DNA of 64,000 nucleotides, taken from NCBI GenBank assembly GCA_964472295.1, contig CAYYJQ010000002.1:32074-96073 (forward strand). The letters run 5' to 3'. The DNA comes from an uncultured Thermodesulfobacteriota bacterium. Its GTDB lineage: Bacteria > Desulfobacterota > GWC2-55-46 > JADFVP01. Shown here in pieces: positions 5,704 to 61,236 of this stretch (the stretch's first letter is position 1; each line of letters opens with the position of its first letter). Made by a program: the position numbers and the translations under genes. The notes beneath the pieces are model-generated. The model was not told the DNA's origin and searched no databases. It saw only the letters and a list, made by a program, of their open reading frames with translations.

Positions 5704-5726
5704 GATAATCCTTCTCTTACCAGGAC

Positions 5727-8042: not shown

Positions 8043-8062
8043 CTCTTTAATTCAGACTTTCC
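8043..8062. promoter_or_regulatory. CTCTTTAATTCAGACTTTCC motif 5' of the FG-GAP/BNR/NPP/GH operon
   Basis: It shares CTCTTTAAT with 59901..59909 and AAT(T)CAGACTTTCC with the direct repeats at 60172..60200. Confidence 0.4.
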
Positions 8063-8109
8063 AACGGTGAAAATATGCGCCGCCATCTTCAAGGTTTGTC
8101 AGCCCTTGA

Positions 8110-8140
8110 AAATGCAAAAAAACCGCGTTTTTTTGCATTT
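8110..8140. repeat. 31-bp palindrome AAATGCAAAAAAA-CCGCG-TTTTTTTGCATTT
   Basis: Perfect 13-bp arms. A similar A-tract/CGCGG/T-tract palindrome GAAAAAGAAAAAA-CGCGG-TTTTTCTTTTTC lies at 60074..60105. It sits in the 400-bp spacer between the EPS locus and the secreted-enzyme operon. Confidence 0.6.
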
Positions 8141-8414
8141 CATCTCCCCTTATTTCAAGGACGAACTAAGAGGAGGTTCCCTATATTAAAAAAACAATGT
8201 AGCCATATGCTACGGCATTATACATAATTTCAAGATATTTTGCAAGCCGTTGCCCCATGGAGGGAAGGCATCATTAACCATATTTTACAGGCCCCTCCAG
8301 TAGCCCATGACCTGAACCTGGTTTACGCTACGATAGAACCCATGGCCAAACAGGGACCTTCAAAATGGAGAGTTTCCCATGATTTTCCTGAGTCGTACAA
8401 CATCTCCCTTCGTA

Positions 8415-9578: not shown

Positions 9579-9654
9579 ACCCGTCCTCTATTGATATATG
9601 CAGACATGCACGCGCCGCGCTAAAAACCCCACCAACGCCCCCTTGGGCGCCCCC

Positions 9655-10836: not shown

Positions 10837-10849
10837 CTACCGCTTCCTC

Positions 10850-12520: not shown

Positions 12521-12531
12521 TAATACCCCTT

Positions 12532-14058
12532 CTATAGATACCCCAGGGCCTTGAGGCGTCCCTTTATCTTATCAACTTCCATGTCCCCTTCGTCGCTGGC
12601 CGCGGCGCTGGTAGGATTGAAGCTCTCTATGTACGATACAGGAAGGTCCTCGGTGAAGATACCCTTAAGGACCTTTCCCGGCATGTCCCTCGCCACCTCC
12701 ACGCCCATGAGGGCAAGAGATGTGGGGGTAATATCGTATATAGAGGCATCGGGCATTGACTTGCCCACCTTGATGCCGGGGCCTGCCGCCATGAATACGC
12801 CCTCGAGTTTGTGGTCCCCCGAGACGTCAGCCTTGTGCGGCGAGAAGAGCCGGGAGAAGGGCACTTCGCCGAACCTCTCCGCCCTAATCACCCGTTGCGG
12901 GTCCATGACAACGCCGGAGAACTGGTCCCCGAGTTTTATCCCGATGAGCGACTCCTCGTAGATAATATCAAAAACCTTCTCGCCAGTATCGGCAAAACGC
13001 ATCTCCTCGACAATCCCGGAGACTTCCTTAAGGAGATCCCTGTCATTAAAGTACATGAAGGTCATGAAACCTATGTTGGCGGGTATTACCTTTTTCTCAA
13101 TGCCAATGAGGCCGAGAAAGACCTCGTGATTCAACCTAAAGGACTCCTTGAGCATTTCCATGGCCTGGGCCCCGTGGTCGGAGATGAGCATTATGGTGGT
13201 ATCGCTCCCGGCGGCGTTCATGAACTCGCCTACTGTCCTGTCGGCCTCGATGTAAGACCGGGGAATTACATCCGCGTACCTTGAAACAAGGTCTCTATCC
13301 ACGTCCTTGAACCTCTCGGGCTCATAGTACTTCCAGTACCTGTGTGCAAGGGCGTCGCAGAGGTGTATGTGAAAGGTGGCGAAATCGGGCCTGTGAAGTC
13401 CATAGAGGTAGGTGAAGAACTCGGAGCATATCCTCAGGTGCAGGGCCGCCTTTTTCCAGTACTTCTCATCATCAGGGGGCCGCCGGACCATGTTATTGGC
13501 AAGAAAGACGAGGCTCTCAAGAAGGGTACGCGCGCTGACGCCGTGTTTCTTGAGTTTCAGCGCATAACCAACGAAGGTGCCCAGCCTTGAGGACCCCTTG
13601 CCCTTTGACTCAAGCTCGGGTTTGTTCTTCTTTCTCTCACCCAATGTGAGTTCCTGCAAAAAGCTGTATTCCTCGGGGTATGTCTCAGGGCCTATGGAAA
13701 AGAGGGACGGTATCATGAAACCATTTACCGGGTAGGGGGGCCAGGTGACAAAACTTCCAAAGACCCCTACCTTATGCCCCTTCTCGCTCAATATGTCCCA
13801 TATGCGCCGCACCTTCACCATGGACGATGAACTTCCGAAGAACTCCACGCCATGCTCATTGGAACTCTTCCCGGAAAAGATGGTAACCCATAGACGCGGC
13901 GAGATAAGGGGGTGCTCGGAGATGAGGTTGCCCGATACACCTCTTCTCATGAGCGCGGCTATATTGGGGAGCTTGCCAGAGGAAATGAGCGGGTTCATTA
14001 CATCCCAGGTGGCCCCATCGAGCTCAATAATCATAAGTTTTGATCGAAGTCCTCTCAT
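12532..14058 (-). CDS. alkaline-phosphatase-superfamily NPP-family protein (paralog 2)
   Basis: The ORF-track frame extends to 14301. The likely start is the Met at 14058 (MRGLRSKLMIIELDGATWDV), with GGTGGAG 5' of it overlapping the stop of the upstream gene. Motif ISPRLWVTIFSGKSSNEHGVEFF. C-terminal tail GRLKALGYL. Confidence 0.7.
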   Translation of the reverse strand: MRGLRSKLMIIELDGATWDVMNPLISSGKLPNIAALMRRGVSGNLISEHPLISPRLWVTIFSGKSSNEHGVEFFGSSSSMVKVRRIWDILSEKGHKVGVFGSFVTWPPYPVNGFMIPSLFSIGPETYPEEYSFLQELTLGERKKNKPELESKGKGSSRLGTFVGYALKLKKHGVSARTLLESLVFLANNMVRRPPDDEKYWKKAALHLRICSEFFTYLYGLHRPDFATFHIHLCDALAHRYWKYYEPERFKDVDRDLVSRYADVIPRSYIEADRTVGEFMNAAGSDTTIMLISDHGAQAMEMLKESFRLNHEVFLGLIGIEKKVIPANIGFMTFMYFNDRDLLKEVSGIVEEMRFADTGEKVFDIIYEESLIGIKLGDQFSGVVMDPQRVIRAERFGEVPFSRLFSPHKADVSGDHKLEGVFMAAGPGIKVGKSMPDASIYDITPTSLALMGVEVARDMPGKVLKGIFTEDLPVSYIESFNPTSAAASDEGDMEVDKIKGRLKALGYL

Positions 14059-14065
14059 CTCCACC

Positions 14066-15595
14066 TCACATGTACCCAAGGCTCTCAAGGCGCTTACGCA
14101 TCTTCGCGTAGTCCACGGGTTCTTCTTTACCGGAGGCCGCCTCTCCGCTCTCGTAACTCTCAACGTAACGTATGGGATGTTCCTTGAGGAAGTCTTTCGT
14201 AAATATGGCCTTGACGGGACTGCCGTCCATGTCCTTTGCAACGGGATAACCTGCAAGGGCAAGTACCGTTGGAGCAACGTCCATGATGGAGGCGTCCCCA
14301 AGGGAGGAGCCTCTCTTTACGCCTTTACCGTGGAAGAGAAAGATGCCGTTATCCTTGTGCACGCCAGTAACACGGAGCTTCCTTGTGGGGAAGAGATCAG
14401 CAAAACGGTAAGTCCCCAAATCAGCGACAGAGACCTCGGTATCGTCGTTGACATCGGTACGCCAGAGCTTCGTAGTGGTCTGTATGCTGAGATACCTCTC
14501 GTACTGGTCCACCTTGAAGATGCTCTCCTTTGTCCCGGCAAAGGCTATCTTCTCGATAACACCCTTGGCACGCGCCATCTCTTCTTTATCCCTCGAGGGA
14601 AAGGTCAGGTAGACCTTTATGCCGAAACGCGCCGGTATGACGCTGTTCTCAAGGCCGAGTATCTTGAGAAACCTCTCTATGTCGAGGATATGGGGCTGAA
14701 TCGCATCGGGCATGGCACCAAAGCCGTGGTCCGATACAAGCACCACGCTTGTATCATCGTCTATCATATCAAGAAAAGCGCCCACGGTCCTGTCGAGCTC
14801 CATATAGGCCTCGGGGATGACCCCGGCAAACTTGGCAGTAGCGGCGTCAGGGGCCTTGGAAAACTTCTCGGGCTCATAAGACTCCCAGTACCTGTGCGAT
14901 ATGGCGTCGCAGAGGTGGACATGGAAGGTTGCAAACTCAGGCCTATGCCTCTTGTAGAGGTTAATAAAGAGCTCGGTAAGCATCCGGTGGTAAATGGTGG
15001 CCTTTCGCCAGTACTTGTCCAAGGGAGTGTGGCTTCCGGCCTTCTCCCAGAGAAAATACTTTAACATGTAGAGAAATGTGCTATTGCTTATCCCATTCCT
15101 CTGCAGACCTTTGACGGCCTTCAATATGGCGAAGAGCTTACCGCTCCTTGAGGCCTTCTGGGTCAACTTCCTTCTTTCCCTCAGCACCACTTCCTGAAAG
15201 GAGCTGTACTCCTCGGGATAAGTCTCCGGCCCCATGGCGAATACGCTCGGTATAATAAAGCCATTTATGGGGTATGGAGGCCAGGTTACGAGGCTTCCCA
15301 CCACCCCCACCTTATTTCCCTGGTCATTAAAGATGTCCCAGAGCCGTTTCTGACGCACGGACTTGGCGGAGTCGCCGAAGAACTCCACTCCGTGTTTTTC
15401 GGAGCTCTTCCCCGTGAAGATGCTCGTCCATATCCTCGGTGAGATCATGGGCTGTTCGGAACGGAGCACCCCCCAGGAACCGCGGTCCATCAAGCCCTTG
15501 ATGTTGGGAAGGCGCCCCTTGTCAACAAGGGGCTTCATCACATCCCATGTACCGCCGTCAACTTCCACTATTAGTATCTTAGAGGCTGGCTTCAT
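14066..15595 (-). CDS. alkaline-phosphatase-superfamily NPP-family protein (paralog 3)
   Basis: ILIVEVDGGTWDV...MISPRIWTSIFTGKSSEKHGVEFF. C-terminal tail KRLESLGYM. Confidence 0.75.
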   Translation of the reverse strand: MKPASKILIVEVDGGTWDVMKPLVDKGRLPNIKGLMDRGSWGVLRSEQPMISPRIWTSIFTGKSSEKHGVEFFGDSAKSVRQKRLWDIFNDQGNKVGVVGSLVTWPPYPINGFIIPSVFAMGPETYPEEYSSFQEVVLRERRKLTQKASRSGKLFAILKAVKGLQRNGISNSTFLYMLKYFLWEKAGSHTPLDKYWRKATIYHRMLTELFINLYKRHRPEFATFHVHLCDAISHRYWESYEPEKFSKAPDAATAKFAGVIPEAYMELDRTVGAFLDMIDDDTSVVLVSDHGFGAMPDAIQPHILDIERFLKILGLENSVIPARFGIKVYLTFPSRDKEEMARAKGVIEKIAFAGTKESIFKVDQYERYLSIQTTTKLWRTDVNDDTEVSVADLGTYRFADLFPTRKLRVTGVHKDNGIFLFHGKGVKRGSSLGDASIMDVAPTVLALAGYPVAKDMDGSPVKAIFTKDFLKEHPIRYVESYESGEAASGKEEPVDYAKMRKRLESLGYM

Positions 15596-17072
15596 CTGTT
15601 ATTTCCCCTCTTGATTTATGTAACGTATACAGAGTCTGCGCCAATGCGATGACCATCCAGAGGTTCTTGTCAAGGAGGCTGTTCGAAGTACAGAGGAAAA
15701 AGCCGTAACCGCTGAGGGTCCCGAAGAGGGCGAGGGCGAGGTACCTGGTCTTGATGTCTCCCGAGGCCCGCATGACCATCCACATGCGCTTCATTGTTAG
15801 AAGATAGAGGGCGGCGAGGATAGATAAACCGAAAATGCCATACTCCGCGGCTATCTGCAGAGGCGTGTTATGTGTCTTCATGACGGTCTCCTGAAAGGCA
15901 TTGGCGGTATGGTGGGCCGCGTAGCGTCTATAGTTGGAGACAAAGCCATCGGGGCCGATGCCGAATATGGGGTTGTCGAAGAACATGGCCAGCCCGATGG
16001 GCACGTGCTCAAGGCGCATGCTGGCGGTCTGCTCTGAGCGCCCCTCTGAAGAATAGAGCCTCTCTGTATTCATCTCCGGCATTGCGACTACAACGACTAA
16101 GAGCAACATGAAAAACCCCGCCACAATGCCGCCGAATATGAGCCACTTCCTGCGGATCTCGATAAATGTCCAGATCACCATGAGCGAAATGGCAAGGCCG
16201 AGAAGCGCGCCTCTTGAGGCGGTCAGCAGGACGTTTATAGAGGCCACGGCAAAGACAATCCCTATGAGGCCTTTTTTGAGTCTGGAGTTCACGGTGAAAA
16301 ACTTGTAGACACAAAGACTCGCTATAACGACCATGTAGATGCCGTGGTAGGGGGCGTCTCCGATGAGGCCGTTGATCCTTCCCGCGTGCACGTTAAGGAG
16401 CACGTCACTTACGTCAGCCATGAAGATTGACCTGTTCCCAAGAAGGGCATAGGGAGACATATTTATCCTCATCTCAAGAAAACCTATAAGCCCGACTATC
16501 AGCCCGCCGGCCAATACCCAGGAAATCGTCTTCTCCATCTGCTCGCGCTTCTTCAAGGCAGTCTGCAGGTAGAAAAAGATAAGCCAGGAGTATATGAAGA
16601 GCTGTATCTGCTTTGCTGCCGCGGCTATACTCTGACTGTTCTTAATAGATATGAACATGAGGATGAGAAAAGCGCTAACAAGGAGATGCTCGGGCCTCAT
16701 GACGAACATCCCTATGAACTCCCGATCCTTCTTAAGGAGCATGACCATGGTCCACATTATAAAACCAGTCATCATTATTACAGTGGATACTGGAAAACCG
16801 CCTGAGGTTACGGGCAGGTTCAAGAACGCGGCGAATCCAAGGGTCAGGACAAAGATGCGGGCAAAGAGGAACTCATGGCGGAGGTAGAATACCGTGTATA
16901 ATACGGGCATTACGAGTGCTACCCCTATTAACGGATTATAACCTACAAGGGCCGCGTAAACAAAGATGAATGCCAGGAGCAGACCAAGAGCGAGCAGTCT
17001 GAAGGCCGTGGCCATCTGGTAACCTGGCTTTTGCATGTTAATCTCGTACATCACGTCTCCTCGGTCCGGCAT
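15579..17072 (-). CDS. polytopic membrane protein, O-antigen ligase/polymerase-like (Wzy_C-type)
   Basis: At least 10 predicted TM segments read by eye, with a large loop. It sits between the paralog genes and overlaps the upstream gene by 17 nt. The family assignment is from the overall pattern only. Confidence 0.45.
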   Translation of the reverse strand: MPDRGDVMYEINMQKPGYQMATAFRLLALGLLLAFIFVYAALVGYNPLIGVALVMPVLYTVFYLRHEFLFARIFVLTLGFAAFLNLPVTSGGFPVSTVIMMTGFIMWTMVMLLKKDREFIGMFVMRPEHLLVSAFLILMFISIKNSQSIAAAAKQIQLFIYSWLIFFYLQTALKKREQMEKTISWVLAGGLIVGLIGFLEMRINMSPYALLGNRSIFMADVSDVLLNVHAGRINGLIGDAPYHGIYMVVIASLCVYKFFTVNSRLKKGLIGIVFAVASINVLLTASRGALLGLAISLMVIWTFIEIRRKWLIFGGIVAGFFMLLLVVVVAMPEMNTERLYSSEGRSEQTASMRLEHVPIGLAMFFDNPIFGIGPDGFVSNYRRYAAHHTANAFQETVMKTHNTPLQIAAEYGIFGLSILAALYLLTMKRMWMVMRASGDIKTRYLALALFGTLSGYGFFLCTSNSLLDKNLWMVIALAQTLYTLHKSRGEITDEASL

Positions 17073-17110
17073 GGGACAGTCCTCTATCTTTCTCCCTCAC
17101 AGACCTTCCC

Positions 17111-18199
17111 CTATACGTAATCGCTGTCGCCAATAGATATGTCCCACATGGCCGCGTCTGTGACATCTACGGGAGGTGCGTCTTCACGCTCCCATCTCAC
17201 AATAAGATTGTGGTTGGTCTCCTTTACGGCAAAGCCCTTGTGACGCATGACTTCCCATGCATGGGAGTCCTCTCTCAACCAGGAGTTGACTGAATCAGCC
17301 TTCTCATCATAGCAGTAATTGACCGCGCGGTTTATCAAGACCCCCGTGACATCTATTTCCGGGTCAGAAAGCAGTTCCAGTATATAGCCACGCCTCATGT
17401 CTTCATTGAGTACGGCTACGACGGTAAAACCAACGACCACGTCGCCCTTCTCTATGGCAAAGACCCGATAATTGACAGAAGGACAGTCTACATAACGCCA
17501 GTTAAGATAAGCTGAGTCCTTGTAGAGCATAACCTTTACACGGGAAGAGACCGACTTGAGGAGCCTGTCGAAGCGCTCGTCGAACCTCTTTATCTCACTT
17601 ATGCGAAAACCCTCGGGCAGGGTTACGTCCGTGGAGTGCACCATGTGCATCAACGCTCCGGAGACCTTGCCGAGCACACGAGCAAGAGGCGCCGGCGCGG
17701 CCTTTTTTCTCAAAAACTCCCCGGGGTCGAGAACCCTCACAAGACGGCGCACAGGAAAAACGCTCTGGAACTTGAGTAGGCGCCTGCTTATCTTAAGCGT
17801 CTTATGAATGGAGTACCCGAAGACAATCTTCACCCCCGCCGGAGAAAGCAACTGTGTGGCGCAGTCGTGCAGTCTGAAGAAGGGCCCACCCTTCTGGAAC
17901 TCCGGAAGTATTACGATATCACAGGTCTGCGCACCGAGGACCTTCTGTCCATCTATCATCAGCCAGGTAGGAATAGCGCCTACCTGTCCCACAACTCTAC
18001 CGCTCTGTGCCTCTACGCCCACAGCCATAATGTGAGCGCCAGCGGGATTGGCATAGTACTTCCACCTCCAGAAGGCCATGTCCTTGTCTACGCCGAAGAC
18101 CGTCTTGTAAATCGCAGGCAGATACTTCAAGTCCCGCTCTTCGAGCTTGCGTATCTCAATATTCTTGAACCTTTCCCTGGCCATACTCCCTCTTATCAC
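17111..18199 (-). CDS. GNAT-fold / FemAB-like acyl(aminoacyl)transferase
   Basis: Roughly 360 aa. The architecture resembles the FemAB/BioF2-like acetyltransferase proteins common in EPS loci. No transmembrane segment. Confidence 0.45.
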   Translation of the reverse strand: MIRGSMARERFKNIEIRKLEERDLKYLPAIYKTVFGVDKDMAFWRWKYYANPAGAHIMAVGVEAQSGRVVGQVGAIPTWLMIDGQKVLGAQTCDIVILPEFQKGGPFFRLHDCATQLLSPAGVKIVFGYSIHKTLKISRRLLKFQSVFPVRRLVRVLDPGEFLRKKAAPAPLARVLGKVSGALMHMVHSTDVTLPEGFRISEIKRFDERFDRLLKSVSSRVKVMLYKDSAYLNWRYVDCPSVNYRVFAIEKGDVVVGFTVVAVLNEDMRRGYILELLSDPEIDVTGVLINRAVNYCYDEKADSVNSWLREDSHAWEVMRHKGFAVKETNHNLIVRWEREDAPPVDVTDAAMWDISIGDSDYV

Positions 18200-19869
18200 A
18201 GGTAACCCAGGCCCTTAAGGCGCTTTGCAACCTCTTCCTCGTCCTCCTCGGAGAGGAAACTGTCAGCCCCGGAATCAATGACAACACCCTCGTCGTCACT
18301 GAAAGCCGCCTTGTGTGATCTCAGGAATCTGCCCTTGATAATGCCATCAAGGGCCTGACCATCCATTCCCCTTGGAACAGGAACTCCAAGAAGTCTTAGA
18401 ATCGTGGGGGCAATGTCCATTATGTGCGCGCCCTCTACAGCGCCCTTCTTTTTCAAGTCTTTTCCGTAGCCGAGCAGAATCCCCTCCATCCGGTGCGTCC
18501 CCCAGCCGCTCGCATAGCTTGCCTTCTCAAAGACATGTCCCTTTAACTGCACGTCCGCCAGATAGGCCCCTCCCTTCAAGAAGAAGATTATATCAGGCGC
18601 ATCGTCAAGGTAGGGGCCGCTGTAGAGTTCCTCCTTCTTGTAGGTATGTGTAACAACGGCCTCGCCCGTGGCGGGGTCCCGCATCTTTTTGAGAGCGGCG
18701 ATGAGGTCGTCCCTGAACTCCTCGTATTCCTGGCCAGGGCTTATCACGCCATCTGGCTCACGTCCCTTGAGGTTAACATAAAAGCCCTGTTCAGTATTGG
18801 AGGCGGAGTAGGCCTTTGTTTTCGACCAGTTAATAACCTGAAGAAAGTCATATGCGTGTATCCTGCCGCCCTTGCCCCTGCTCGGAAGGATTCGTTTGCG
18901 CAGATTATGTTTGTCTATCCTTCTTAAGTACCTCTTCACCTTGAGCACGCTCTGGCGGAAGGCCATATGAGAGAGTTGTTTGCTCTGATTGAGCTCCAGG
19001 TATCCTTGCTGGTGCAGCCACTGGTTGACGTATACCTTCTTTTCAAGAGGACCGAAGCCGTGGTCTGATACCATGAGGATATTGGCCACATCCCCGTACC
19101 TCTCCATGACCTTGCCCATGAATGCGTCGACCATCTGGTAGTACTCTTTTATCTTCTTAACAAAGCCCTTCTCGCGCGTGGTGAGCGAGTCCGGATCCAC
19201 GGGGTGGATGTACTTCCAGAGATAGTGCTGTATGCGGTCGGAACCGATAAATACCGAGATGAAAAGATCCCATTGCTTGTTTTCCATAAGGTACTCGAAG
19301 GCCCGGCATCTCTGCTCCGTGCACTCGATAATCTCATCGAGAAACTTCTCCACACCACGCTCGCCGTAGTACTGCCACCATACATCCATGGTGTATCCGC
19401 CGATCTTGTTCTTCACCTCCTCGAAGAGACCCTCGGGGTATGAGATGTTCGTGGCGTTCCCGGGCGTTAGAAGACCGGTAATTACGAAACCGTCAACCTC
19501 TGGCGGCGGGTACGTTAGCGGCATGTTGACCATGCCCACCTTCATCCCCGCGTCGTTTACGAGTTTCAGTATGGTAGCGCTCCTGATATGCTTGTAGTTG
19601 ACAGGGTGGCGGCCGACCTCGTTCTTGCCGGCCTTTACAAAGTCATAGATGCCGTGCTTTCCGGGGTTCTTCCCTGTCATGAAGGAGACCCACGACGGAC
19701 CGGTAACAGGGGGAATAGATGAACGGAGGTCGCCACGCACCCCTTCTGCGCACATCTTCTGAAGGTTGGGGAGCTCACCCCTCTTCATGTATGGGTCGAG
19801 GGCGTCGAAGGTGGCCCCATCGAGACCTATCACTATAACCTTTTCATTTATCTTCTTTTTCATTACCAA
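18196..19869 (-). CDS. alkaline-phosphatase-superfamily NPP-family protein (paralog 4)
   Basis: VIVIGLDGATFDALDPY...SIPPVTGPSWVSFMTGKNPGKHGIYDF. C-terminal tail KRLKGLGYL. Confidence 0.75.
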   Translation of the reverse strand: MVMKKKINEKVIVIGLDGATFDALDPYMKRGELPNLQKMCAEGVRGDLRSSIPPVTGPSWVSFMTGKNPGKHGIYDFVKAGKNEVGRHPVNYKHIRSATILKLVNDAGMKVGMVNMPLTYPPPEVDGFVITGLLTPGNATNISYPEGLFEEVKNKIGGYTMDVWWQYYGERGVEKFLDEIIECTEQRCRAFEYLMENKQWDLFISVFIGSDRIQHYLWKYIHPVDPDSLTTREKGFVKKIKEYYQMVDAFMGKVMERYGDVANILMVSDHGFGPLEKKVYVNQWLHQQGYLELNQSKQLSHMAFRQSVLKVKRYLRRIDKHNLRKRILPSRGKGGRIHAYDFLQVINWSKTKAYSASNTEQGFYVNLKGREPDGVISPGQEYEEFRDDLIAALKKMRDPATGEAVVTHTYKKEELYSGPYLDDAPDIIFFLKGGAYLADVQLKGHVFEKASYASGWGTHRMEGILLGYGKDLKKKGAVEGAHIMDIAPTILRLLGVPVPRGMDGQALDGIIKGRFLRSHKAAFSDDEGVVIDSGADSFLSEEDEEEVAKRLKGLGYL

Positions 19870-49932: not shown

Positions 49933-50577
49933 CTACTCCATCATACCCATAATCCGCCGCGCCTTCTTGGCGGGGTCCCGGTCCAGCAGTACGTCCGAGA
50001 TCAAGGCAACGGCGTCAACACCAGTTGCAAGCACCTCTGGCAGTCTGTCTTCCGTTATGCCGCCTATGGCAACGAGTTTTTTTGTGACAATACTCCTGGC
50101 CTCGCCAAGAAGACCAATCCCCTGGGCCGGGTCCGCGTTCTTCTTGGTGCTCGTCGCGAAGACAGGACCAAAAGATATATAATCAGCGCTTGAATCGCCG
50201 GCCCTCCGGGCCTGCCCGAGGTCGTGCGTCGAAAAGCCTATAACAGCCCCCTCTCCAAGGAGCCTTCGCGCCTCATCCACAGGTATATCGTCCTGCCCGA
50301 GGTGCACGCCCCCGGCCCCCGAGAGTAGCGCTATATCCACCCTGTCGTTCACAATAAAGAGCGCGCCCCTTGAAGAGGCCATGGAAGAAAGCCGCCTCGA
50401 AAGAACGAGAAACTCACTGGACCCGAGGCCCTTTGCCCGTAACTGCAGAACCCCTGCCCCGGCGCCAAGGAGCTTTTCCGCCAGCGCCGCCGTCTCCTTA
50501 ACGGGCACGAGTGACGTATCCACAATGGCGTAAAACCCCTTTATCCCCGCCGCCTTATCCATCCCCGGAGAGATCAC
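49933..50577 (-). CDS. thiE: thiamine-phosphate synthase
   Basis: FYAIVDTSL...LQLRAKGL...GVHLGQDDIP...LVAIGGITEDRL, the ThiE TIM-barrel signature. Confidence 0.75.
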   Translation of the reverse strand: MISPGMDKAAGIKGFYAIVDTSLVPVKETAALAEKLLGAGAGVLQLRAKGLGSSEFLVLSRRLSSMASSRGALFIVNDRVDIALLSGAGGVHLGQDDIPVDEARRLLGEGAVIGFSTHDLGQARRAGDSSADYISFGPVFATSTKKNADPAQGIGLLGEARSIVTKKLVAIGGITEDRLPEVLATGVDAVALISDVLLDRDPAKKARRIMGMME

Positions 50578-52016
50578 GGCCTGCCCCGTCCCCCGGCGCC
50601 GGCCTTCTTCTCTATGCCAAGGAGTTTTATCTTCTTCCTGAGGGTGTTCCTGTTTATGCCAAGAACCTCGGCGGCGCGAAGCTGATTCCCCCCTGTCTTC
50701 TCAAGGACAAGACGGAGCAGGGGCCTCTCCATGAAGGGCATGATAAGGGCGTATATGTCCTGCCTGCCCCTCGACTCCATTCTCTCGAAAAAGGGCTTCA
50801 GCCTCGCGGCAATGACATTCTCAAGGGAATCTCCCCTGCGCTCTCCCGGTGTTATGTTAAGGTCGCAGGGAAGTATCTCCATGGTGGAAGAAAGGAGCAC
50901 GGCCCTCCTTATTACGTTCTCCAGTTCGCGCACGTTACCGGGCCAGCGGTAATGCTTGAGGGCCTCAACGGCCGCCGGAGAAAGAGTCCTCGCCCCTGTG
51001 CCGAACTCACTGGAAAACCTCGCGAGAAAGTACCCGGCAAGGAGCGGAATGTCAGAGCGGCGTTTTCTGAGAGGAGGCATGGTAATCGTGACCCCGCCGA
51101 GACGGAACCAGAGGTCTTCCCTGAAACTCCCGTCTCTAACCATGGCCGGTATGTCGTGATTCGTGGCCGCTATGATGCGCACATCTACCTTTATGGGCGC
51201 CTTTCCCCCCACCCTGTAGAACTCGCGTTCCTGCACCACGCGAAGGAGCCTGGCCTGAAGGTCCGGGCTCATGTCCCCTATCTCGTCAAGGAAGATGGCC
51301 CCGGTATCGGCAAGCTCAAACTTTCCGGGCCTCGCCTCCACCGCGCCTGTAAAGGCGCCCTTCTCGTGCCCGAAGAGTTCGCTCTCCATGAGCCCCGCAG
51401 GAACAGCGGCGGCATTGAAGGCCACAAAGGGGCCGTCCTTCCGGGGGCTCGAGGCGTGGAGGATGCGCGCCATGAGTTCCTTTCCCGTGCCGCTCTCGCC
51501 AAGGACCATTACGTCCACATCCGAGGCGGCAAGCCTTCCCACGGTCTTGAAGACCTCCTGCACGGCCCGGGACTTTCCCACAAAGACGGTGCTCTCGGCA
51601 AGGCCTTCGTCCAGCCTTGTCGAGAGCCTTCGGAGTTTTTTACGCATGGCCCGGTCTTTGAGGGCACGCTCCACGATTATCTCAAGTTCATCAAGGTCAA
51701 AGGGCTTACCTATATAATCAAAGGCCCCGAGCTTCATGGCCTCAACCGTGTTATCCATGGTGGCCTCGGCGGTCATTATGATGAAAGAGGTCTCTCCCGC
51801 GAGGTCTCCTGCGTCCTTTAATATGGCGAGGCCGTCCTTTCCCGGCATGTTTATATCCAGAAGGGCCATGTCCGGCGACTTCTCACGCAGGAGGGCCTCG
51901 GCCCCATTGCCGTCAGAGGCACGTAGAGTCTCAAGACCCTTGTCCGAGAAAAAACTCTCAAGGAGCCAGAGCATGCTCTCGTCATCATCTGCTATAAGAA
52001 CAACCTGTTTCTTCAT
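50574..52016 (-). CDS. sigma-54-dependent response regulator (NtrC family: REC + AAA+ sigma-54 activator + Fis-type HTH)
   Basis: REC domain LIADDDESM...DINMPGKDG. AAA+ domain with GESGTGKELMARILH and ESELFGHEKGAFTGA (GAFTGA). C-terminal HTH. Confidence 0.85.
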   Translation of the reverse strand: MKKQVVLIADDDESMLWLLESFFSDKGLETLRASDGNGAEALLREKSPDMALLDINMPGKDGLAILKDAGDLAGETSFIIMTAEATMDNTVEAMKLGAFDYIGKPFDLDELEIIVERALKDRAMRKKLRRLSTRLDEGLAESTVFVGKSRAVQEVFKTVGRLAASDVDVMVLGESGTGKELMARILHASSPRKDGPFVAFNAAAVPAGLMESELFGHEKGAFTGAVEARPGKFELADTGAIFLDEIGDMSPDLQARLLRVVQEREFYRVGGKAPIKVDVRIIAATNHDIPAMVRDGSFREDLWFRLGGVTITMPPLRKRRSDIPLLAGYFLARFSSEFGTGARTLSPAAVEALKHYRWPGNVRELENVIRRAVLLSSTMEILPCDLNITPGERRGDSLENVIAARLKPFFERMESRGRQDIYALIMPFMERPLLRLVLEKTGGNQLRAAEVLGINRNTLRKKIKLLGIEKKAGAGGRGRP

Positions 52017-52038: not shown

Positions 52039-53205
52039 TTATCCGGCCCGCGCCGCCCCTCTCCGGTCCGTCACTGCGCGCGCTATGGGTAGATAAACCC
52101 TCACCCTTGTGCCCTCACCGGGCGTGGACTCTATATTCAAGTACCCGCCCTGCTCCCGCACTATCTTGAGCGATACGGGCATTCCAAGTCCGCTCCCGCC
52201 CTTCTTGGTGGTGAAAAATGGGGTGAAAATCCTCTCAAGGTCCTCTGCCTCAATGCCGCACCCCTTATCACGTACCTCCACCACGGCCATCCTTGCTCCC
52301 CCGGGCCCCCTTGCCGCCGTTTCTCCCACGGCACGACCCGTCCCGCCGCGCCCTGTGCCTGAGATATGAAAATCCGTTATAATCCTTGTCCCAACAGAGA
52401 TGACCCCCGCGCCCGAGAGGGCCTCCCTCGCGTTCTTGAGGAGGTTCAGGAATACCTGCACCAGGGCCCCTTCATCTCCCGCCACAGGCGGAAGGGAGGG
52501 GTCGTACTCCCGTCTTATCACGAGGTCCGGGCACTCTCCAGAGACGAGGAATATTACTGAATCAAGGAGTTTGTGTATGTTTATCTCCTTCTTTACATCT
52601 CTTCGAGGGGCCGTGAGCGCCGCCACCTCCATAAGCATGGCGTCGAGGCGGTCAGTCTCTCTTATGATAATATCCGTATAATTGGAGAGTCCGCCATCTG
52701 TAGTCTTCCTTGAGAGGAGCTGGGCCGCGGCCCTGATGCCGCCAAGCGGGTTTCTTATCTCATGCACGAGTTTTGCCGCGAAAAAACCAATGCCAGAAAG
52801 ATCCCCGTCCTGCGGCGACTGGCCCGCAAGGGATTTTCCTCCTGAGCCAAGGTCCCTTATAAAGGCAATGGCCCCTTTAAGGACTCCTTCGGCATCGTGG
52901 ACCAGCCCTGTTGTCACGCTCACCGAGAGAGGCCCGCCAAAGGCACGGTGAAGACGCCCGGCGCGGTCGATAAAGACCTTGCCATCCCTGATGGTCTCCT
53001 CCATCAGCTCAAAGAACCAGGGGTCGCGGGGAAAGACCTCGTCAAGGGACCGATTGAGGGCCTTTTTCCTTGACCTTCCCGAGAGGCGCTCGGCCATCTG
53101 GTTGAAGACCTGTATCCTCATGGAGAGATCCACATAGACAAGCCCCCCCAGGAAGCTGTCCATGATCTCCTCGTAGATCTTCTCCTGCTCTCCTCTCATG
53201 GCCAT
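52039..53205 (-). CDS. cytoplasmic PAS sensor histidine kinase (NtrB-like)
   Basis: The likely start is the ATG at 53205 (MAMRGEQ...), preceded by AGGTG. PAS domain, H-box HEIRNPLGGIRAAAQLL, and HATPase_c with G-boxes. No TM segment. Confidence 0.75.
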   Translation of the reverse strand: MAMRGEQEKIYEEIMDSFLGGLVYVDLSMRIQVFNQMAERLSGRSRKKALNRSLDEVFPRDPWFFELMEETIRDGKVFIDRAGRLHRAFGGPLSVSVTTGLVHDAEGVLKGAIAFIRDLGSGGKSLAGQSPQDGDLSGIGFFAAKLVHEIRNPLGGIRAAAQLLSRKTTDGGLSNYTDIIIRETDRLDAMLMEVAALTAPRRDVKKEINIHKLLDSVIFLVSGECPDLVIRREYDPSLPPVAGDEGALVQVFLNLLKNAREALSGAGVISVGTRIITDFHISGTGRGGTGRAVGETAARGPGGARMAVVEVRDKGCGIEAEDLERIFTPFFTTKKGGSGLGMPVSLKIVREQGGYLNIESTPGEGTRVRVYLPIARAVTDRRGAARAG

Positions 53206-53235
53206 CACACACCTATATTTGCCTAAATAATAGGC

Positions 53236-53264
53236 ATTATAACACGGTATTTTCCAGAAGACAA
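53236..53264 (-). promoter_or_regulatory. sigma-70-like promoter for the NtrB-like kinase / NtrC-like regulator operon
   Basis: The minus strand reads TTGTCT-17 nt-TATAAT, about 30 nt 5' of the AGGTG/ATG at 53205. Confidence 0.45.
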
Positions 53265-53417: not shown

Positions 53418-53459
53418 GAAAACCAAGGGGGGCGAGGGGGCTCAAGGCCCCTCGCCCCC
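53395..53459 (-). terminator. rho-independent terminator after nirB
   Basis: 12-bp GC stem GGGGGCGAGGGG/CCCCTCGCCCCC with an 8-nt loop, followed on the minus strand by CTTGGTTTTCCTTACTTTCTTTTT. Confidence 0.6.
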
Positions 53460-53470: not shown

Positions 53471-55852
53471 TCAACCCGCGATTCGTTCCTTCCATGGGTC
53501 CCGTACAACGGCAAGGGCGGAAGAGAGGCGTTGCAGGAGCCTGGCTCTCCCAGGCGCGTCCTCCACCACGGCCTTTTTCACGGCCTCAAGGCCAACTCGT
53601 TCAATAAACGTAGCGGTCCTCTCTCCATAATGGGCCTCTTCGCGATAATACTGGAGAAATGCCCCGGCAATCTCGCGTACTTCATCGGCTGTCTTTACGG
53701 TGCAGAGGATCTCGGCCCCCCGCGTCTTTGTGCCGCCGCAGCCGCCGACATAAATCTCCCAGCCGCCCGATATTCCCGTTATGCCTATATCCTTTATCGC
53801 TGTCTCGGCGCAGTTTCGCGGACAGCCCGTAACTCCCATCTTCACCTTGGCGGGTGTCCAGAGCCCCTCGAACTCCTTCTCAAGGGCCATGCCGAGGCCC
53901 ACGGAGTCCTGCGTGCCGTACCTGCAAAAAGTCGACCCCACACAGGTCTTTACGGTGCGAAGGGCCTTTCCATAGGCATAACCCGAGGGCATGCCGAGGT
54001 CTTTCCAGACACGCGGAAGGTCTTCTTTTTTTATACCAAGGAGATCAAGACGCTGGCCTCCTGTTACCTTCACGAGGGGCACATGGTACTTCTCGGCAAC
54101 CTCGGCTATGCGCCGTAGTTCCCTGGGCGTGGTAATGCCTCCGTACATCCTCGGCACAACGGAGAAGGTCTTGTCCTTCTGGATATTTGCGTGGGCGCGC
54201 TCATTTACCACCCTTGATGTGGGGTCGTCCTCGCTCTCTCGGGGCCAGACCATGGAGACATAGTAGTTTATGGCGGGCCTGCACCTGTCGCACCCCACGG
54301 TCTCCCAGCCAAGGGAATCCATGACAGCCATGACAGAGGTAAGCCTGTTATCGCGTATGTTCCTTATAAGGTCATCCCGCGTATAACGTGTGCAGGCGCA
54401 GATGGCGCGGTCCTCGCCCCCGCCCTGAAAATCAGAGCCAAGTACTGCCTCGAGTATCTGCTCAACGAGCGTTCCGCATCCGCCGCAGGACGTTGCGGCC
54501 TTTGTCTCGCGCTCCACGTCTTCGCGCGTGAAGAGGCCCTTTTCCTCTATGGCCTTTACGATTTCGCCCTTTGTCACTCCGTTACAGCCGCAGATAATGG
54601 CATCATCAGAGAGGGCGTCCACTGAGGCCGTGGCCCTCGCGGAGAGGCCCTCGCCAAAGAGTATGGTGCCCCGCTTCTCAGTGATGTCATTCCCGTCAAT
54701 AAGGTGCTGAAAGAGACGCGGCCCGTCGCTGGTCTCGCCGTAGAGGAGTATTCCCTCTATCCTACCGTCCCTTATGAAGAGTTTCTTGTACGTGCGAAGC
54801 CCCCTGTCCGAGAACTCGATGGTCTCAACGCCAGGGCCGGTCTCTACACTCCCCGCGGAATATAACTCAATGCCCGGGACCTTGAGTTTTGTTGAGAGGG
54901 GTTTATTCACAAAATAAAGCCGCGCGTCCCCAGCAAGGTGGTTGGCAAGGACACGGGCCTGCTCAAAGAGCGGGGCAACAAGGCCGAAGGTCAGGCCCCT
55001 ATGCTGGACGCACTCGCCAACAGCGTATACGGCAGGGTCATAGGTCTGCAAGGTGTCGCTCACCACTACGCCGCGCTCGCAGTATATGCCCGAGGCACGG
55101 GCAAGGACCATATTGGGCCTGATTCCAGTAGAGAGGACTACGACATCAGTCTCAAGGTGGCTGCCATCAGAGAAGGTAATCCCCTCGACCCTCTCCCTGC
55201 CCGTAATCTCCGTGGTCTTCGCTCCAAGGCGTATCTTCATGCCCCGCTTCTCGAGGTCTTCCTTGAGGAGCGCACCGGCCTCGGCGTCGAGCTGACGCTC
55301 CATGAGCCGGTCCATGAGGTGTACTACCGTAACCTCAAGGCCAAGGTCCATGAGCCCCCTTGCCGCCTCAAGGCCCAGAAGCCCGCCACCAAGGACTACT
55401 GCGCGTCTGCTCGCGGCGGCCTCGCGCTTAAGGCGTTCGCAATCCTCGATGTTACGAAAGGGGATTACCCCTTCCTTATCTATCCCATCTATGGGGGGCA
55501 CAAAGGGGACCGAGCCCGTGGCGAGGATAAGGCTGTCATAGGCGGCCTCCGTGCCGTCCTCGGAGACGGCCACGCGGCGGCTCCTATCTATCTTCTTAAC
55601 AGGACTCCCCGTATGGAGCGTAATCCCCCGCTCTTCATACCACTCAAAGGCATTGAGTGTTATATCTTGAAGGGTCTTCTCGCCCGTAAGGAGCGATGAG
55701 AGAAAGACCCTGTTGTAGTTGGGGTGGCGCTCCTTGCCGAATACCGTTATCTCGTAACGCTCGGCGTCAAGGCGCAGTATCTCCTCGATACAACTCGTGC
55801 CTGCCATACCGCCACCTATGACAACGAGTTTTTTTCTTGTGTTCTTCTTCAT
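53471..55852 (-). CDS. nirB: assimilatory NAD(P)H-nitrite reductase large subunit
   Basis: The likely start is the ATG at 55852 (MKKNTRKKLVVIGGGMAG). FAD/NAD Rossmann folds, BFD-like [2Fe-2S] CGCNGVTKGEI, and siroheme/4Fe-4S motifs CVGSTFCRYG and TGCPRNCAE. Confidence 0.8.
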   Translation of the reverse strand: MKKNTRKKLVVIGGGMAGTSCIEEILRLDAERYEITVFGKERHPNYNRVFLSSLLTGEKTLQDITLNAFEWYEERGITLHTGSPVKKIDRSRRVAVSEDGTEAAYDSLILATGSVPFVPPIDGIDKEGVIPFRNIEDCERLKREAAASRRAVVLGGGLLGLEAARGLMDLGLEVTVVHLMDRLMERQLDAEAGALLKEDLEKRGMKIRLGAKTTEITGRERVEGITFSDGSHLETDVVVLSTGIRPNMVLARASGIYCERGVVVSDTLQTYDPAVYAVGECVQHRGLTFGLVAPLFEQARVLANHLAGDARLYFVNKPLSTKLKVPGIELYSAGSVETGPGVETIEFSDRGLRTYKKLFIRDGRIEGILLYGETSDGPRLFQHLIDGNDITEKRGTILFGEGLSARATASVDALSDDAIICGCNGVTKGEIVKAIEEKGLFTREDVERETKAATSCGGCGTLVEQILEAVLGSDFQGGGEDRAICACTRYTRDDLIRNIRDNRLTSVMAVMDSLGWETVGCDRCRPAINYYVSMVWPRESEDDPTSRVVNERAHANIQKDKTFSVVPRMYGGITTPRELRRIAEVAEKYHVPLVKVTGGQRLDLLGIKKEDLPRVWKDLGMPSGYAYGKALRTVKTCVGSTFCRYGTQDSVGLGMALEKEFEGLWTPAKVKMGVTGCPRNCAETAIKDIGITGISGGWEIYVGGCGGTKTRGAEILCTVKTADEVREIAGAFLQYYREEAHYGERTATFIERVGLEAVKKAVVEDAPGRARLLQRLSSALAVVRDPWKERIAG

Positions 55853-55943
55853 CTCATTAACCTCGAAGACGCCTGGCGTCGGCTCATAACCAGGACCAGA
55901 GAGTTTTATCCCTCCTGGAGAGGCGGGGGCCACCGAAGTGGGC

Positions 55944-55997
55944 CGCAAAAAACCATTTAAACAGGCGAGGGGCGCGGGGAAAGACCCCGCGCCCCTC
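55944..55997 (-). terminator. rho-independent terminator after amt copy 2
   Basis: 13-bp stem GAGGGGCGCGGGG-AAAGA-CCCCGCGCCCCTC, followed on the minus strand by TGTTTAAATGGTTTTTT. Confidence 0.6.
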
Positions 55998-56021
55998 GTA
56001 TCTTTCCTTAATTTGTCTATC

Positions 56022-57296
56022 TCAGAGGCTATATCCGCTCTCGCCGTGAAGCGCGTAGTCAAGGCCGGCCACCTCGTCCTCGTCAGTGACCCTGAGGCCA
56101 ACCACAAGGTCAACTATCTTGAGGATTATGAAGGTAGCCACAGCCGCAAGCACCATGGTGGCCACGACACCTATAATCTGCGCCTTCATCTGCCCCGGGT
56201 TGCCAAAGAAGGCACCCTTTGCCCCTACGGAGGCGAAGAGCCCCGTGGCCAGCGCCCCCCAGGTACCGCCAACGCCGTGTATGCCAAAGGCGTCAAGGGC
56301 GTCGTCATAACCAAGGGCGGGTTTTACAATAGCCACCATGAAGTAGCAGATAACTCCACCAACAGCACCGATGATGATGGACGATACAGGCCCCACAAAG
56401 CCAGCCCCGGGAGTAATGGAGACAAGGCCGGCCACGGCGCCAGAGACAACGCCAAGCACAGTGGGTTTGCCCCTGTGAGCCCACTCCACAAATACCCAGG
56501 CAAGGGCCGCGGCGGCGGAGGCCGTGTTTGTCGTGACAAAGGCCATGGCCGCTATGCCGTCTGCCGCAAGGGCGCTCCCCGCGTTAAAGCCAAACCAGCC
56601 AAACCAGAGTATGGCGGCGCCAATGACCGTAAGGGTCATGTTATGGGGCGGCATGTGCTCGCGCGGATAGCCCCGCCTCTTTCCAAGGACTATGGCCACG
56701 ACAAGGGCCGATATGCCCGAGCTTATATGAACTACCGTGCCGCCGGCAAAGTCCAAGGCCCCCATGCTACCTATCCAGCCCCCGCCCCAGACCCAGTGGC
56801 ATATGGGGTCATATACAACGGTGGTCCAGATGAGGCTGAATATGATAACAGCGGAAAATTTCATTCTACCGGCTACTGCTCCGGTGATGAGGGCTACGGT
56901 AATGATGGCGAACATTCCCTGAAACATCATGAAGATAAGGTGCGGGATGCTGCCCTTCGCCTCCATGCCCACATGGGCAAGCCCAAAGTACTTAATGCCC
57001 CCGACAATGCCACCAAGGGCGTGGGGCCCAAAGGATAGCGAGTATCCCCAGAGGACCCATTGAACGCTAATCAGGCAGAGCAGGAAAAAACTCTGCATGA
57101 TAGTGGAGAGGACATTTTTCTGTCTTACCATGCCCCCGTAAAAGAGGGCGAGCCCGGGGGTCATGAACATCACAAGGGCCGTTGATACGAGTATCCATGC
57201 CGTGTCACCTGCGCTTATGGAGCCCCCCTCCCCCGCAAAGGCCGTGCCCCCGAGGGCAATGAAAAGAAACAAGACCAATGATGCCTTTTTGAGCAA
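56022..57296 (-). CDS. amtB: ammonium transporter (Amt family), copy 2
   Basis: Signal peptide. 11 TM helices. DFAGGTVVH and FGWFGFN Amt signatures. TTG start. Confidence 0.85.
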   Translation of the reverse strand: MLKKASLVLFLFIALGGTAFAGEGGSISAGDTAWILVSTALVMFMTPGLALFYGGMVRQKNVLSTIMQSFFLLCLISVQWVLWGYSLSFGPHALGGIVGGIKYFGLAHVGMEAKGSIPHLIFMMFQGMFAIITVALITGAVAGRMKFSAVIIFSLIWTTVVYDPICHWVWGGGWIGSMGALDFAGGTVVHISSGISALVVAIVLGKRRGYPREHMPPHNMTLTVIGAAILWFGWFGFNAGSALAADGIAAMAFVTTNTASAAAALAWVFVEWAHRGKPTVLGVVSGAVAGLVSITPGAGFVGPVSSIIIGAVGGVICYFMVAIVKPALGYDDALDAFGIHGVGGTWGALATGLFASVGAKGAFFGNPGQMKAQIIGVVATMVLAAVATFIILKIVDLVVGLRVTDEDEVAGLDYALHGESGYSL

Positions 57297-57372
57297 CTCT
57301 CTTCTCCTTTCAGACCATTTTTGTATTTAAACATTAAACATATCACCTCCTGTAATTACTGACAACTGAAAA

Positions 57373-59857
<2,485 letters not shown>

Positions 59858-59897
59858 CTTGTCTCCTCTTCTTGCCCCGGTTTTTTATCTTGAGGAA

Positions 59898-60212
59898 CCT
59901 CTCTTTAATCCGTCCCGGAATTAAGGAGAGACGGGAAAGAAAAAAACGCTGTTTTTCTTTCCCTCACATTTTCAAGAACTTACAGTTATAGAAAATCTCA
60001 ACACGTCCCGGCGTTGCTGGAACATCTGAATTAAGGAAGCTCTGAATAATTCGTCCCTGAATTATTCAGAGACGAAAAAGAAAAAACGCGGTTTTTCTTT
60101 TTCTCACATTTTCAATAACTTACAGTTATCGAAAATGGCAACACGTCCATGTGTTGCTGGAAAGTCTGAATTAATCAGACTTTCCTTAATCAGACTTTCC
60201 TTTCTTATCCCG
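59898..60212. repeat. tandem 139-bp direct repeat (2 body copies, 3 hairpin modules) in the leader of the porin-glnK-amt operon
   Basis: Unit 1 starts at 59935 (GAAAGAAAAAAACGCTGTTTTTCTTTCC...) and unit 2 at 60074 (GAAAAAGAAAAAACGCGGTTTTTCTTTTTC...). The units contain ACTTACAGTTAT(A/C)GAAAAT and GCAACAC-N6-GTGTTGC. The hairpin modules lie at 59901..59930, 60042..60069 and 60164..60200. Confidence 0.7.
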
Positions 60213-60339
60213 AAGGTCATCCATATCTCCCCCCCTGCCCCGGGCGCGCCGCGCCGCGCTCCACCTGCCAACCGCCGTCATGACAATCAGGAGGGAGACG
60301 AATAAGGACATGCCTACTCGTCAATTCCCTTCATATAAC

Positions 60340-60355
60340 GCAACTTTGGTGCCAC
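60340..60355 (-). promoter_or_regulatory. sigma-54 (-24/-12) promoter for the porin-glnK-amt-amt operon
   Basis: The minus strand reads TGGCAC-CAAAG-TTGC, a perfect match to TGGCAC-N5-TTGC, about 480 nt 5' of the porin start. An NtrC-family activator gene is present in the window. Confidence 0.55.
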
Positions 60356-60439
60356 AATGGGCCTGTTTTAAAAAACTATTATTTTTTAAATAGTTAGAGT
60401 GATTAAAGAAAAGATGGGAAGGTATTTGCGAGGGCAATA

Positions 60440-60456
60440 TGCCTATATTTTAGGCA
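60440..60456. promoter_or_regulatory. candidate enhancer-binding-protein site (6-5-6 palindrome) upstream of the sigma-54 promoter
   Basis: TGCCTA-TATTT-TAGGCA lies about 95 bp 5' of the -24 element. An AT-rich palindrome AACTATTATTTTTTAAATAGTT sits in between, at a position expected for IHF-induced bending. Confidence 0.35.
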
Positions 60457-60522
60457 TCGGTTGAGCATAAAAGGGCTTTATTGAGGCAGTTTTGTAAGAG
60501 TCTGATTGATCTTCCGGGGCGC

Positions 60523-61236
60523 TCAGGCTATCTGGCGAAGGAACCTCTTTATGATGGCCCGGCCAAGGCCGTTGATGGCGGGAAGTACTTCGCGGGCCTC
60601 TTCCATTATGGCCTCTGGGGACTTTATATAGGGGACCCCTCTGAGTTCGTCCTCTCCGGCCGTGAGAAATTCCCTCACCATGTGTTCAGTCACCTCTATA
60701 TGAAACTGAAGACCATAGGAATTTGTACCAACCTTTATGAGCTGATGTTCAAAGAGGGGCGATGAGGCGAGGTTTCTCGCACCTTCCGGGATGCTGAAGG
60801 TGTCTCCGTGCCACTGAAATACAGTGAACTCTTCGGGAAGGCCAAGAAGGAGCCTATCGCCAAGGCCTTCTGGCGTAAGGCCTATATCATAAAAACCTAT
60901 CTCTTTCTTATCTCCGCTCGTCACCCTGCCGCCAGCGGCGCGGGCCATCATCTGGGCCCCGAGGCATACGCCGAGCACGGGCACCCGCGCCCTGAAGGCA
61001 GACTCGATAAGCCGGAGTTCGTGGGGTATGAAAGGATACTCCTCTTCGTCATATACACCCATGGGCCCGCCTATGACAACTATGGCGCACCACGGCAGGG
61101 GGTCCGCCGGGACCCTCTCGCCGCGAAAGAGCCCCACCGTCTGAAGCGAAAAGCCATTTTCCAGGGCCACGGCGCCTATGAGGCCAGGTCCCTCGGCCTC
61201 TACATGCTGAAGAACGAGTATCTCATTATCTCTCAT
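60523..61236 (-). CDS. class I glutamine amidotransferase-like protein
   Basis: The likely start is the Met at 61236 (MRDNEILVLQHVE), preceded by GGAGAGG. Catalytic-Cys context GVCLGAQMMA. Confidence 0.65.
   Translation of the reverse strand: MRDNEILVLQHVEAEGPGLIGAVALENGFSLQTVGLFRGERVPADPLPWCAIVVIGGPMGVYDEEEYPFIPHELRLIESAFRARVPVLGVCLGAQMMARAAGGRVTSGDKKEIGFYDIGLTPEGLGDRLLLGLPEEFTVFQWHGDTFSIPEGARNLASSPLFEHQLIKVGTNSYGLQFHIEVTEHMVREFLTAGEDELRGVPYIKSPEAIMEEAREVLPAINGLGRAIIKRFLRQIA

Follow-up and report, generated by a model that had tools for sequence, protein, structure and literature searches.

In the Ntr system of enteric bacteria, NtrC recognizes a site over its own sigma-70 promoter, with autorepression of the glnL (ntrB) promoter, and a site upstream of sigma-54 promoters, such as glnAp2 and that of glnK-amtB. 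Sigma-54 promoters require an enhancer-binding protein, and activators of the NtrC type generally act from at least two sites. The NtrC box of Escherichia coli is TGCACCAnnnTGGTGCA (PMC8743547). In Geobacter sulfurreducens, a PAS kinase, GnfL, and an enhancer-binding regulator, GnfM, control RpoN-dependent nitrogen promoters (Ueki and Lovley 2010; PMC2995071). The NtrC-like GnfM acts on the RpoN promoter of an operon consisting of a hypothetical gene, glnK, and amtB; the GnfM sites of gnfK lie at -131 to -91, and a conserved terminator in the operon leader is relieved by the ANTAR protein GnfR (PMC2995071). DVU3220, the regulator of amt-glnB in Desulfovibrio, has no published motif.

The 64-kb stretch of DNA analysed here (the window), from an uncultured Thermodesulfobacteriota bacterium, carries on its minus strand a -24/-12 element followed by genes for a porin, a GlnK-type protein, and two ammonium transporters (Table 1). 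We consider it probable (roughly 85%) that an enhancer-dependent sigma-54 promoter switches on this porin-glnK-amt-amt ammonium-scavenging operon with the participation of an NtrC-like regulator. Such a reading was already the core of the original prediction and is supported by the conservation of the promoter elements at fixed spacing and by the presence of the dyad at the promoter of the regulator itself. So understood, the locus is an ordinary nitrogen-regulated sigma-54 promoter of the NtrC type, accompanied by a regulator operon that would control itself, textbook in its design, and an insertion in the leader is the only unusual feature of the promoter and operon.

The resemblance to the enteric system extends to the -24/-12 promoter, the 17-bp dyad, which lies >100 bp upstream and has an AT-rich centre between outer TGC/GCA, the glnK-amt target, the joint encoding of the regulator and a PAS histidine kinase, and the overlap of a copy of the site with the sigma-70 promoter of the regulator operon. 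In contrast to the enteric system, the inner half-site is CTA/TAG rather than ACC/GGT, a single clear site is accompanied by a possible degenerate one 22 bp away instead of there being two strong sites with a 32-bp spacing, the first gene of the operon encodes a porin, two amt genes are present, both the regulator and the kinase score under the NCBIfam equivalog cutoffs, and the host is an uncultured member of the Thermodesulfobacteriota. With the Geobacter GnfL/GnfM system, the locus shares a related deltaproteobacterial lineage, the combination of a PAS kinase with an enhancer-binding regulator, and the glnK-amt operon, whereas the leaders in the lineage of the window carry no conserved structure. 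This comparison covers lineage, gene content, regulator type, and leader structure, the GnfM consensus being given only as a figure (PMC2995071).

Table 1. Positions of the regulatory elements, genes, and repeats discussed in the text (window coordinates)
Feature	Position	Strand	Sequence, size, score, or conservation
Distal conserved block	60462..60477	-	AGCCCTTTTATGCTCA; GC..GCA ends; GC and CA columns invariant in alignment A1
Putative proximal upstream activator site	60440..60456	.	Perfect dyad TGCCTA-N5-TAGGCA; same ungapped promoter distance in 7 relatives
AT-rich spacer block	60374..60396	-	TAACTATTTAAAAAATAATAGTT; TAAC, AA, and TTT columns invariant in A1
Sigma-54 -24/-12 element	60340..60354	-	TGGCACcaaagTTGC; conserved in L001-L007 at the orthologous position
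Predicted 5' leader, expected start to porin ATG	59858..60328	-	~470 nt
Left copy of putative 9-bp target-site duplication	60201..60209	-	GATAAGAAA
MITE-like insertion	59890..60200	-	311 bp; absent from L001-L007
Right copy of putative target-site duplication	59881..59889	-	GATAAAAAA
Putative outer-membrane porin (Gcw_chp/TorF family), first operon gene	59117..59857	-	246 aa
glnK-type P-II protein	58713..59051	-	112 aa; Pfam P-II 118 bits; gene call in L012 also 112 aa
Ammonium transporter 1	57373..58716	-	Pfam Ammonium_transp 420 bits; TIGR00836 over cutoff
Ammonium transporter 2, AmtB-like	56022..57296	-	Pfam Ammonium_transp 442 bits; TIGR00836 over cutoff
GC-rich hairpin after amt2	55965..55999	-	15 bp; -35.4 kcal/mol; similar hairpin after amt2 in L004
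Strong GC-rich terminator-like hairpin after nirB	53428-53459		
Sigma-70-like promoter of ntrB-like gene	53236..53264	-	TTGTCT-N17-TATAAT, TG-extended; 10/12 matches
Second exact dyad copy	53220..53236	.	TGCCTATTATTTAGGCA (minus strand); identical or near-identical site at the same place in L001-L005 and L007
NtrB-like cytoplasmic histidine kinase	52039..53205	-	PAS-HisKA-HATPase_c; NCBIfam NR(II) 163.6 bits (cutoff 240)
NtrC-like enhancer-binding response regulator	50574..52016	-	480 aa; REC-AAA+(GAFTGA)-HTH_8; TIGR01818 511.1 bits (cutoff 558.6)

The minus strand of the promoter region reads ...cattgTGGCACcaaagTTGCgttatat..., with TGGCAC at 60354-60349, the spacer caaag, and TTGC at 60343-60340, so that the GG and GC doublets are exactly 10 bp apart, the spacing characteristic of sigma-54 elements. 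A perfect -24/-12 element had been placed at 60355..60340; the element is indeed exact, but its 5' end was off by one, the G at 60355 lying outside the consensus. A or T is preferred directly after TTGC in sigma-54 elements; the base at this position of the window element is G. The exact TGGCAC-N5-TTGC pattern is found once in the 64-kb window, compared to 0.06 occurrences expected from shuffled sequences, a figure that agrees with the earlier estimate of ~0.1 for a 10-position match. When one mismatch is allowed, the window contains 7 matches versus 3.4 expected, so only the exact site stands out. Transcription is expected to start near 60328, ~12 bp downstream of the GC doublet.

The dyad, which on the minus strand reads TGCCTA-AAATA-TAGGCA from 60456 to 60440, is centred at 60448, 95 bp upstream of the -24 GG doublet (60353/60352), as had been proposed, and ~120 bp upstream of the expected start. 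Exact copies of TGCCTA-N5-TAGGCA occur twice in the window, compared to 0.01 expected. The 17-bp dyad recurs in all seven syntenic relatives (see below) at an identical ungapped distance from the -24/-12 element, with the consensus TGCTTAAAAAATAGGCA; anchoring the eight regions on that element without gaps yields sites such as TGCTTAAAAAATAGGCA and TGATTAAAAAATAGGCA. The suggestion that the dyad has the geometry of NtrC sites holds for its 17-bp length and for the outer TGC/GCA, which are common to both, but the inner bases differ, and the site does not match the NtrC box TGCACCA-N3-TGGTGCA. A weight matrix built from the dyads detects, besides the operon site, a single further strong site, located in the gap immediately before the ntrB-like gene, both in the window (53236-53220) and in each of L001-L005 and L007; beyond the sites at the porin operon and at ntrB, no strong copy was found in the ~230 kb searched. 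The presence of only one strong dyad at the operon promoter counts against the NtrC model. The distal conserved block, located ~22 bp upstream of the dyad centre, may represent a second, degenerate activator site.

Between the dyad and the promoter, the AT-rich spacer block of the window includes an inverted repeat, AACTATT-N8-AATAGTT, at 60395..60374. The AT-rich palindrome noticed at the outset is thus present in the window, but its palindromic form is not kept in the relatives, which retain TAAC-N7-AA and a T-run. Matches of the eight sequences to the IHF consensus WATCARNNNNTTR (PMC2709558) reach 7-8 of the 9 positions at best, at inconsistent positions and on inconsistent strands, and the spacer scores no better than AT-rich background. 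A bend or an IHF region in this spacer is plausible.

A scan that included one genome per species produced ten loci encoding relatives of the porin, seven of which (L001-L007) are syntenic; these seven come from metagenome-assembled genomes (MAGs) of Thermodesulfobacteriota or Deltaproteobacteria and encode porins 71-85% identical to that of the window. The relatives share the gene order glgA-GATase-promoter-porin-glnK-amt (one or two copies)-nirB (not always present)-ntrB-ntrC-thiE. TGGCA(C/T)-N5-TTGC is found upstream of the porin orthologue in every one of the seven. In the MAFFT alignment of the eight regions (A1), invariant columns form islands separated by variable sequence: the distal GC...GCA, the dyad, the spacer block TAAC..AA..TTT, TGGCA, TTGC, and a TAT immediately following the -12 element. 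Conserved islands at fixed spacing within diverging flanks are the pattern expected of functional protein-binding sites and rule out chance. The gene content between the promoter and ntrB (53471-58716 in the window) varies, with the first amt gene missing in L001, L004, L005, and L007 and nirB missing in L005 and L007, while the regulatory sites stay in place.

Matches to Pfam and NCBIfam profiles confirm that the genes downstream of the promoter on the minus strand are those named in the original prediction, porin-glnK-amt-amt. The porin has an N-terminus resembling a signal peptide and a C-terminal Phe; its scores are 23.3 bits against Pfam Gcw_chp (cutoff 24) and 38.3 bits against TIGR02001 (cutoff 47.15), and nine of ten porin orthologues match Gcw_chp at E<0.01. 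The GC-rich hairpin after amt2 is the probable end of the operon. It is followed by a gene for the large subunit of a NirB-type nitrite reductase, which scores above the NCBIfam cutoff. Given this hairpin and the one after nirB, nirB probably lies outside the operon and forms a separate transcription unit; in the window it is preceded by neither a sigma-54-like site nor a dyad motif, and a sigma-54-like site is likewise absent ahead of nirB in L001-L004. Profile matches also bear out the claim that nirB and a pair of NtrB/NtrC-like genes are located nearby, with the qualification that nirB is probably transcribed separately. The remainder of the window is occupied by a large polysaccharide-biosynthesis cluster. 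Within 1109-19869, this cluster contains four Phosphodiest/sulfatase-superfamily paralogues (1109-3115, 10850-12520, 12532-14301, and 18196-19869), interspersed with genes for glycosyltransferase, Wzy, MurJ-like flippase, and Wzz/Wza-type proteins.

The regulator combines REC, AAA+, and Fis-type HTH domains and is encoded beside the PAS-HisKA kinase, which is the architecture of NtrC. It scores 225.8 bits against Sigma54_activat, and its GAFTGA motif is intact, as it is in all orthologues. The ntrC model (TIGR01818) is the best-scoring NCBIfam model for this protein, although the score falls under the equivalog cutoff, and the kinase is likewise below its own (PRK11073 for NtrB), so “NtrB/NtrC-like” is the proper wording for the pair. 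The ntrB-like gene is preceded by a sigma-70-like promoter, the last base of which is the first base of the second dyad, so that the dyad abuts the -10 element and covers the -10/+1 region. Six relatives keep the -35 element TTGTCT and a TAnnAT -10 element (TACAAT or TATTAT) at this promoter; L006, whose sequence ends before the gap upstream of the ntrB-like gene, is not included in the count of ntrB sites. The second dyad is presumed to be the autoregulatory operator of the ntrB/ntrC-like genes. Its presence ties the dyad motif to the local enhancer-binding protein, and it appears that the neighbouring NtrC-like protein would bind both dyads, activating the operon and repressing its own synthesis.

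In the mechanism that we infer with regard to the dyad-binding protein, the start site, the response to nitrogen, DNA looping, and read-through of the insertion, RNA polymerase containing sigma-54 would occupy TGGCAC-N5-TTGC (60354..60340) as a closed complex. A shortage of fixed nitrogen would lead the neighbouring PAS histidine kinase to phosphorylate the NtrC-like regulator, which would then bind the 17-bp dyad centred ~120 bp before the start and possibly also a weaker site that lies another 22 bp upstream. The bound regulator would oligomerise, contact the polymerase through a DNA loop formed by the AT-rich spacer, and use ATP to open the promoter, with transcription beginning near 60328. 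The predicted transcript would comprise the leader and the four genes and end at the GC hairpin at 55999..55965. By binding the identical dyad that abuts the -10 element of its own sigma-70-type promoter, the regulator would limit its own synthesis.

The distance from the promoter to the porin ATG is 477 bp in the window, compared to 112-164 bp in the relatives; the leader owes this length to the 311-bp repeat insertion. In a pairwise alignment with the closest relative, L004, homology covers ~130 nt at the beginning of the leader, a part that corresponds to the leaders of the relatives, and ~30 nt at its end, with the 311 extra bases between the two. The putative duplication copies GATAAGAAA and GATAAAAAA agree at 8 of 9 positions, and L003 and L004 have at that point an empty site with a single GGATAAAAAAACAG, as is typical of a 9-bp duplication of the target. 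The ends of the insertion form imperfect terminal inverted repeats, GGAAAGTCTGATTAA ... TTAAAGAGAGGTTCC, with 11 of 15 positions matching. The insertion itself consists of an extra end-repeat and two tandem units of ~140 nt that are 83% identical, each with four hairpins (H1 to H4). H1 is GCAACAC-AUGGAC-GUGUUGC with a U-rich tail, H2 is a 14-bp AT palindrome, H3 is a stem formed by an A-run and a U-run, and H4 is a 13-bp stem with an xGGGAC loop; both H1 and H4 carry xxGGAC hexaloops. The H4 stems of the two units differ by compensatory changes.

Further copies of the repeat are found in the window, namely a full unit at 8040-8190 (plus strand) and an isolated H4 at 3173-3210 (plus strand), CTCTCCTTAATTC-AGGGAC-GAATTAAGGAGA. 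Both occupy intergenic regions of the polysaccharide cluster, are oriented oppositely to the genes that flank them, and sit a short way upstream of genes encoding exported proteins. No copies are present in L001-L010, and neither a matching transposase nor a named repeat family was identified. Of two scans of a metagenome collection for the repeat, one returned no match and the second a single match, located in a coding region of a phage-like contig without flanking similarity and rejected as a chance hit. An identical porin is encoded on three contigs, one of which, JGI Ga0257019_1000345 (L012), differs from the window by one base over 6.7 kb. The difference (window position 60120, L012 position 2738) is inside H2 of unit 1. 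The presence of the insertion in Ga0257019_1000345 shows that it did not arise as an assembly error in one sample.

The insertion resembles bacterial MITEs in several respects: its units are ~150 bp long, its terminal inverted repeats are imperfect, its target is directly duplicated over 9 bp, relatives have the empty site, several copies lie between genes in one orientation or the other, and the sequence is strongly hairpin-forming. It differs from the usual MITE in being a tandem dimer, and neither a cognate transposase nor copies in L001-L010 or in the metagenome collection were found. Taken together, its sequence features are more in keeping with a MITE-like mobile repeat than with a dedicated riboregulator.

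The leader has a predicted folding energy of -176 kcal/mol (z = -6.5 relative to shuffled sequences). RNAalifold predicts no base pairs in the first ~75 nt of the eight leaders and detects no conserved structure in them. A search of the whole window against Rfam at gathering thresholds gave no match. The best permissive intergenic match, to the gyrA RNA motif (29.5 bits versus the gathering score of 45), was judged to be probably due to chance; this motif is known from Pseudomonas, and the match covers 59880-59969 (minus strand), that is, H3 and H4 of unit 2 and the target-site flank. The leader of the porin orthologue in L004, which is without the repeat, contains at ~9905-9935 a hairpin, CGCGA-AUGGAC-UCGCG, with the same hexaloop as H1.

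The fact that ~6% of shuffled windows hold one exact sigma-54 core match might suggest that the motif matches are coincidental and that the operon uses an unrecognised promoter, but the comparative data appear to leave this reading effectively refuted: seven independent genomes keep the core, the dyad, and the distance between them while the flanks diverge, and the dyad is repeated at the promoter of the regulator. It is also unlikely that a genuine sigma-54 promoter is combined with a dyad bound by some other protein, with the activator binding elsewhere or being distinct from the neighbouring NtrC-like protein. Such an arrangement would agree with the position of the dyad at the ntrB promoter, where any classical repressor would sit, with the dissimilarity of the inner half-sites to the enteric NtrC box, and with the sub-cutoff ntrC score of the regulator. 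However, the operon dyad lies at a typical enhancer distance with fixed spacing in eight genomes, the motif has no further strong copy in the sequences searched, and the NtrC-like regulator, whose own promoter carries the dyad in seven genomes, is the only enhancer-binding protein encoded nearby. The binding of the dyad by this regulator is accordingly the reading that we prefer.

The insertion, with its two weak terminator-like hairpins between the promoter and the operon, counts against the main model, and it could be supposed to uncouple the two partly or wholly, through a stop at H1 or through a promoter inside the insertion that takes over. This seems rather unlikely. The insertion is absent from all seven relatives, the leader is unusually structured, and both H1 hairpins with their U-rich tails are flagged as terminator-like; yet these hairpins are weak (-10 and -6 kcal/mol) and have a run of no more than four U, neither a sigma-70-like promoter on either strand of 59700..60700 nor a second sigma-54 match was detected, promoter and dyad are intact, as is each of the four genes, and the same arrangement recurs on the three contigs with the identical porin. 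The ANTAR-dependent antitermination described for the homologous Geobacter operon (PMC2995071) called for a direct check of the leader for ANTAR targets, which consist of two hairpins with A1/G4 hexaloops, separated by a 5-12-nt linker, the second of which competes with a terminator (PMC3369931). That the leader hairpins constitute a riboregulator, serving either GnfR-like ANTAR antitermination or as GGA-loop sites for a CsrA-type protein, is nonetheless very improbable. While the hexaloops AUGGAC and AGGGAC do have the A1 and G4 of ANTAR targets (PMC3369931) and the H1 hairpins are terminator-like, the A1/G4 loops are confined to unit 1 (those of unit 2 begin with C), the hexaloop hairpins are >70 nt apart, and neither competes with a terminator. 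Moreover, the hairpins are inside an insertion without a counterpart in the seven relatives, whose leaders share no structure; the other copies, near polysaccharide-cluster genes, are on the strand that does not encode those genes; and the scan of window ORFs revealed no ANTAR gene, nor did Rfam give a match at the gathering score. It is likewise quite improbable that the insertion acts as a mobile hairpin cassette, made up of weak terminators and GGA-containing hexaloops, that adds post-initiation control (attenuation or ANTAR/CsrA-type capture) to the nitrogen operon; if true, this would make the element a transposable attenuator. On the simplest view, transcripts initiated at the sigma-54 promoter would continue through the insertion, possibly with some attenuation.

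With the insertion variant absent in seven relatives, the locus represents a natural test of how much leader structure is tolerated by a sigma-54 operon. The operator motif TGCCTA-N5-TAGGCA and the promoter layout described here for a nitrogen regulator of uncultured Thermodesulfobacteriota could be used to predict its regulon in MAGs, and they would extend the enteric Ntr design, in which the enhancer lies at about -120 and the regulator represses its own synthesis from a sigma-70 promoter, to a lineage of this phylum.

The scanned ORFs of the window do not include an rpoN gene, and the RpoN box was found neither in the window nor in L001-L007. We infer that rpoN is present in these organisms from the intact GAFTGA motif of the activator in all relatives and from the abundance of sigma-54 and its activators in Thermodesulfobacteriota (PMC12316311). 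Among the sequences searched, the RpoN box was found only in the distant L010, a deltaproteobacterial MAG, where it reads ARRTVAKYRE (at ~2530-2650) and is located a few kb from that genome's own glnK-amt-porin cluster. L010 also carries a TGGCAC-N5-TAGC element at 7977, immediately upstream of glnK.
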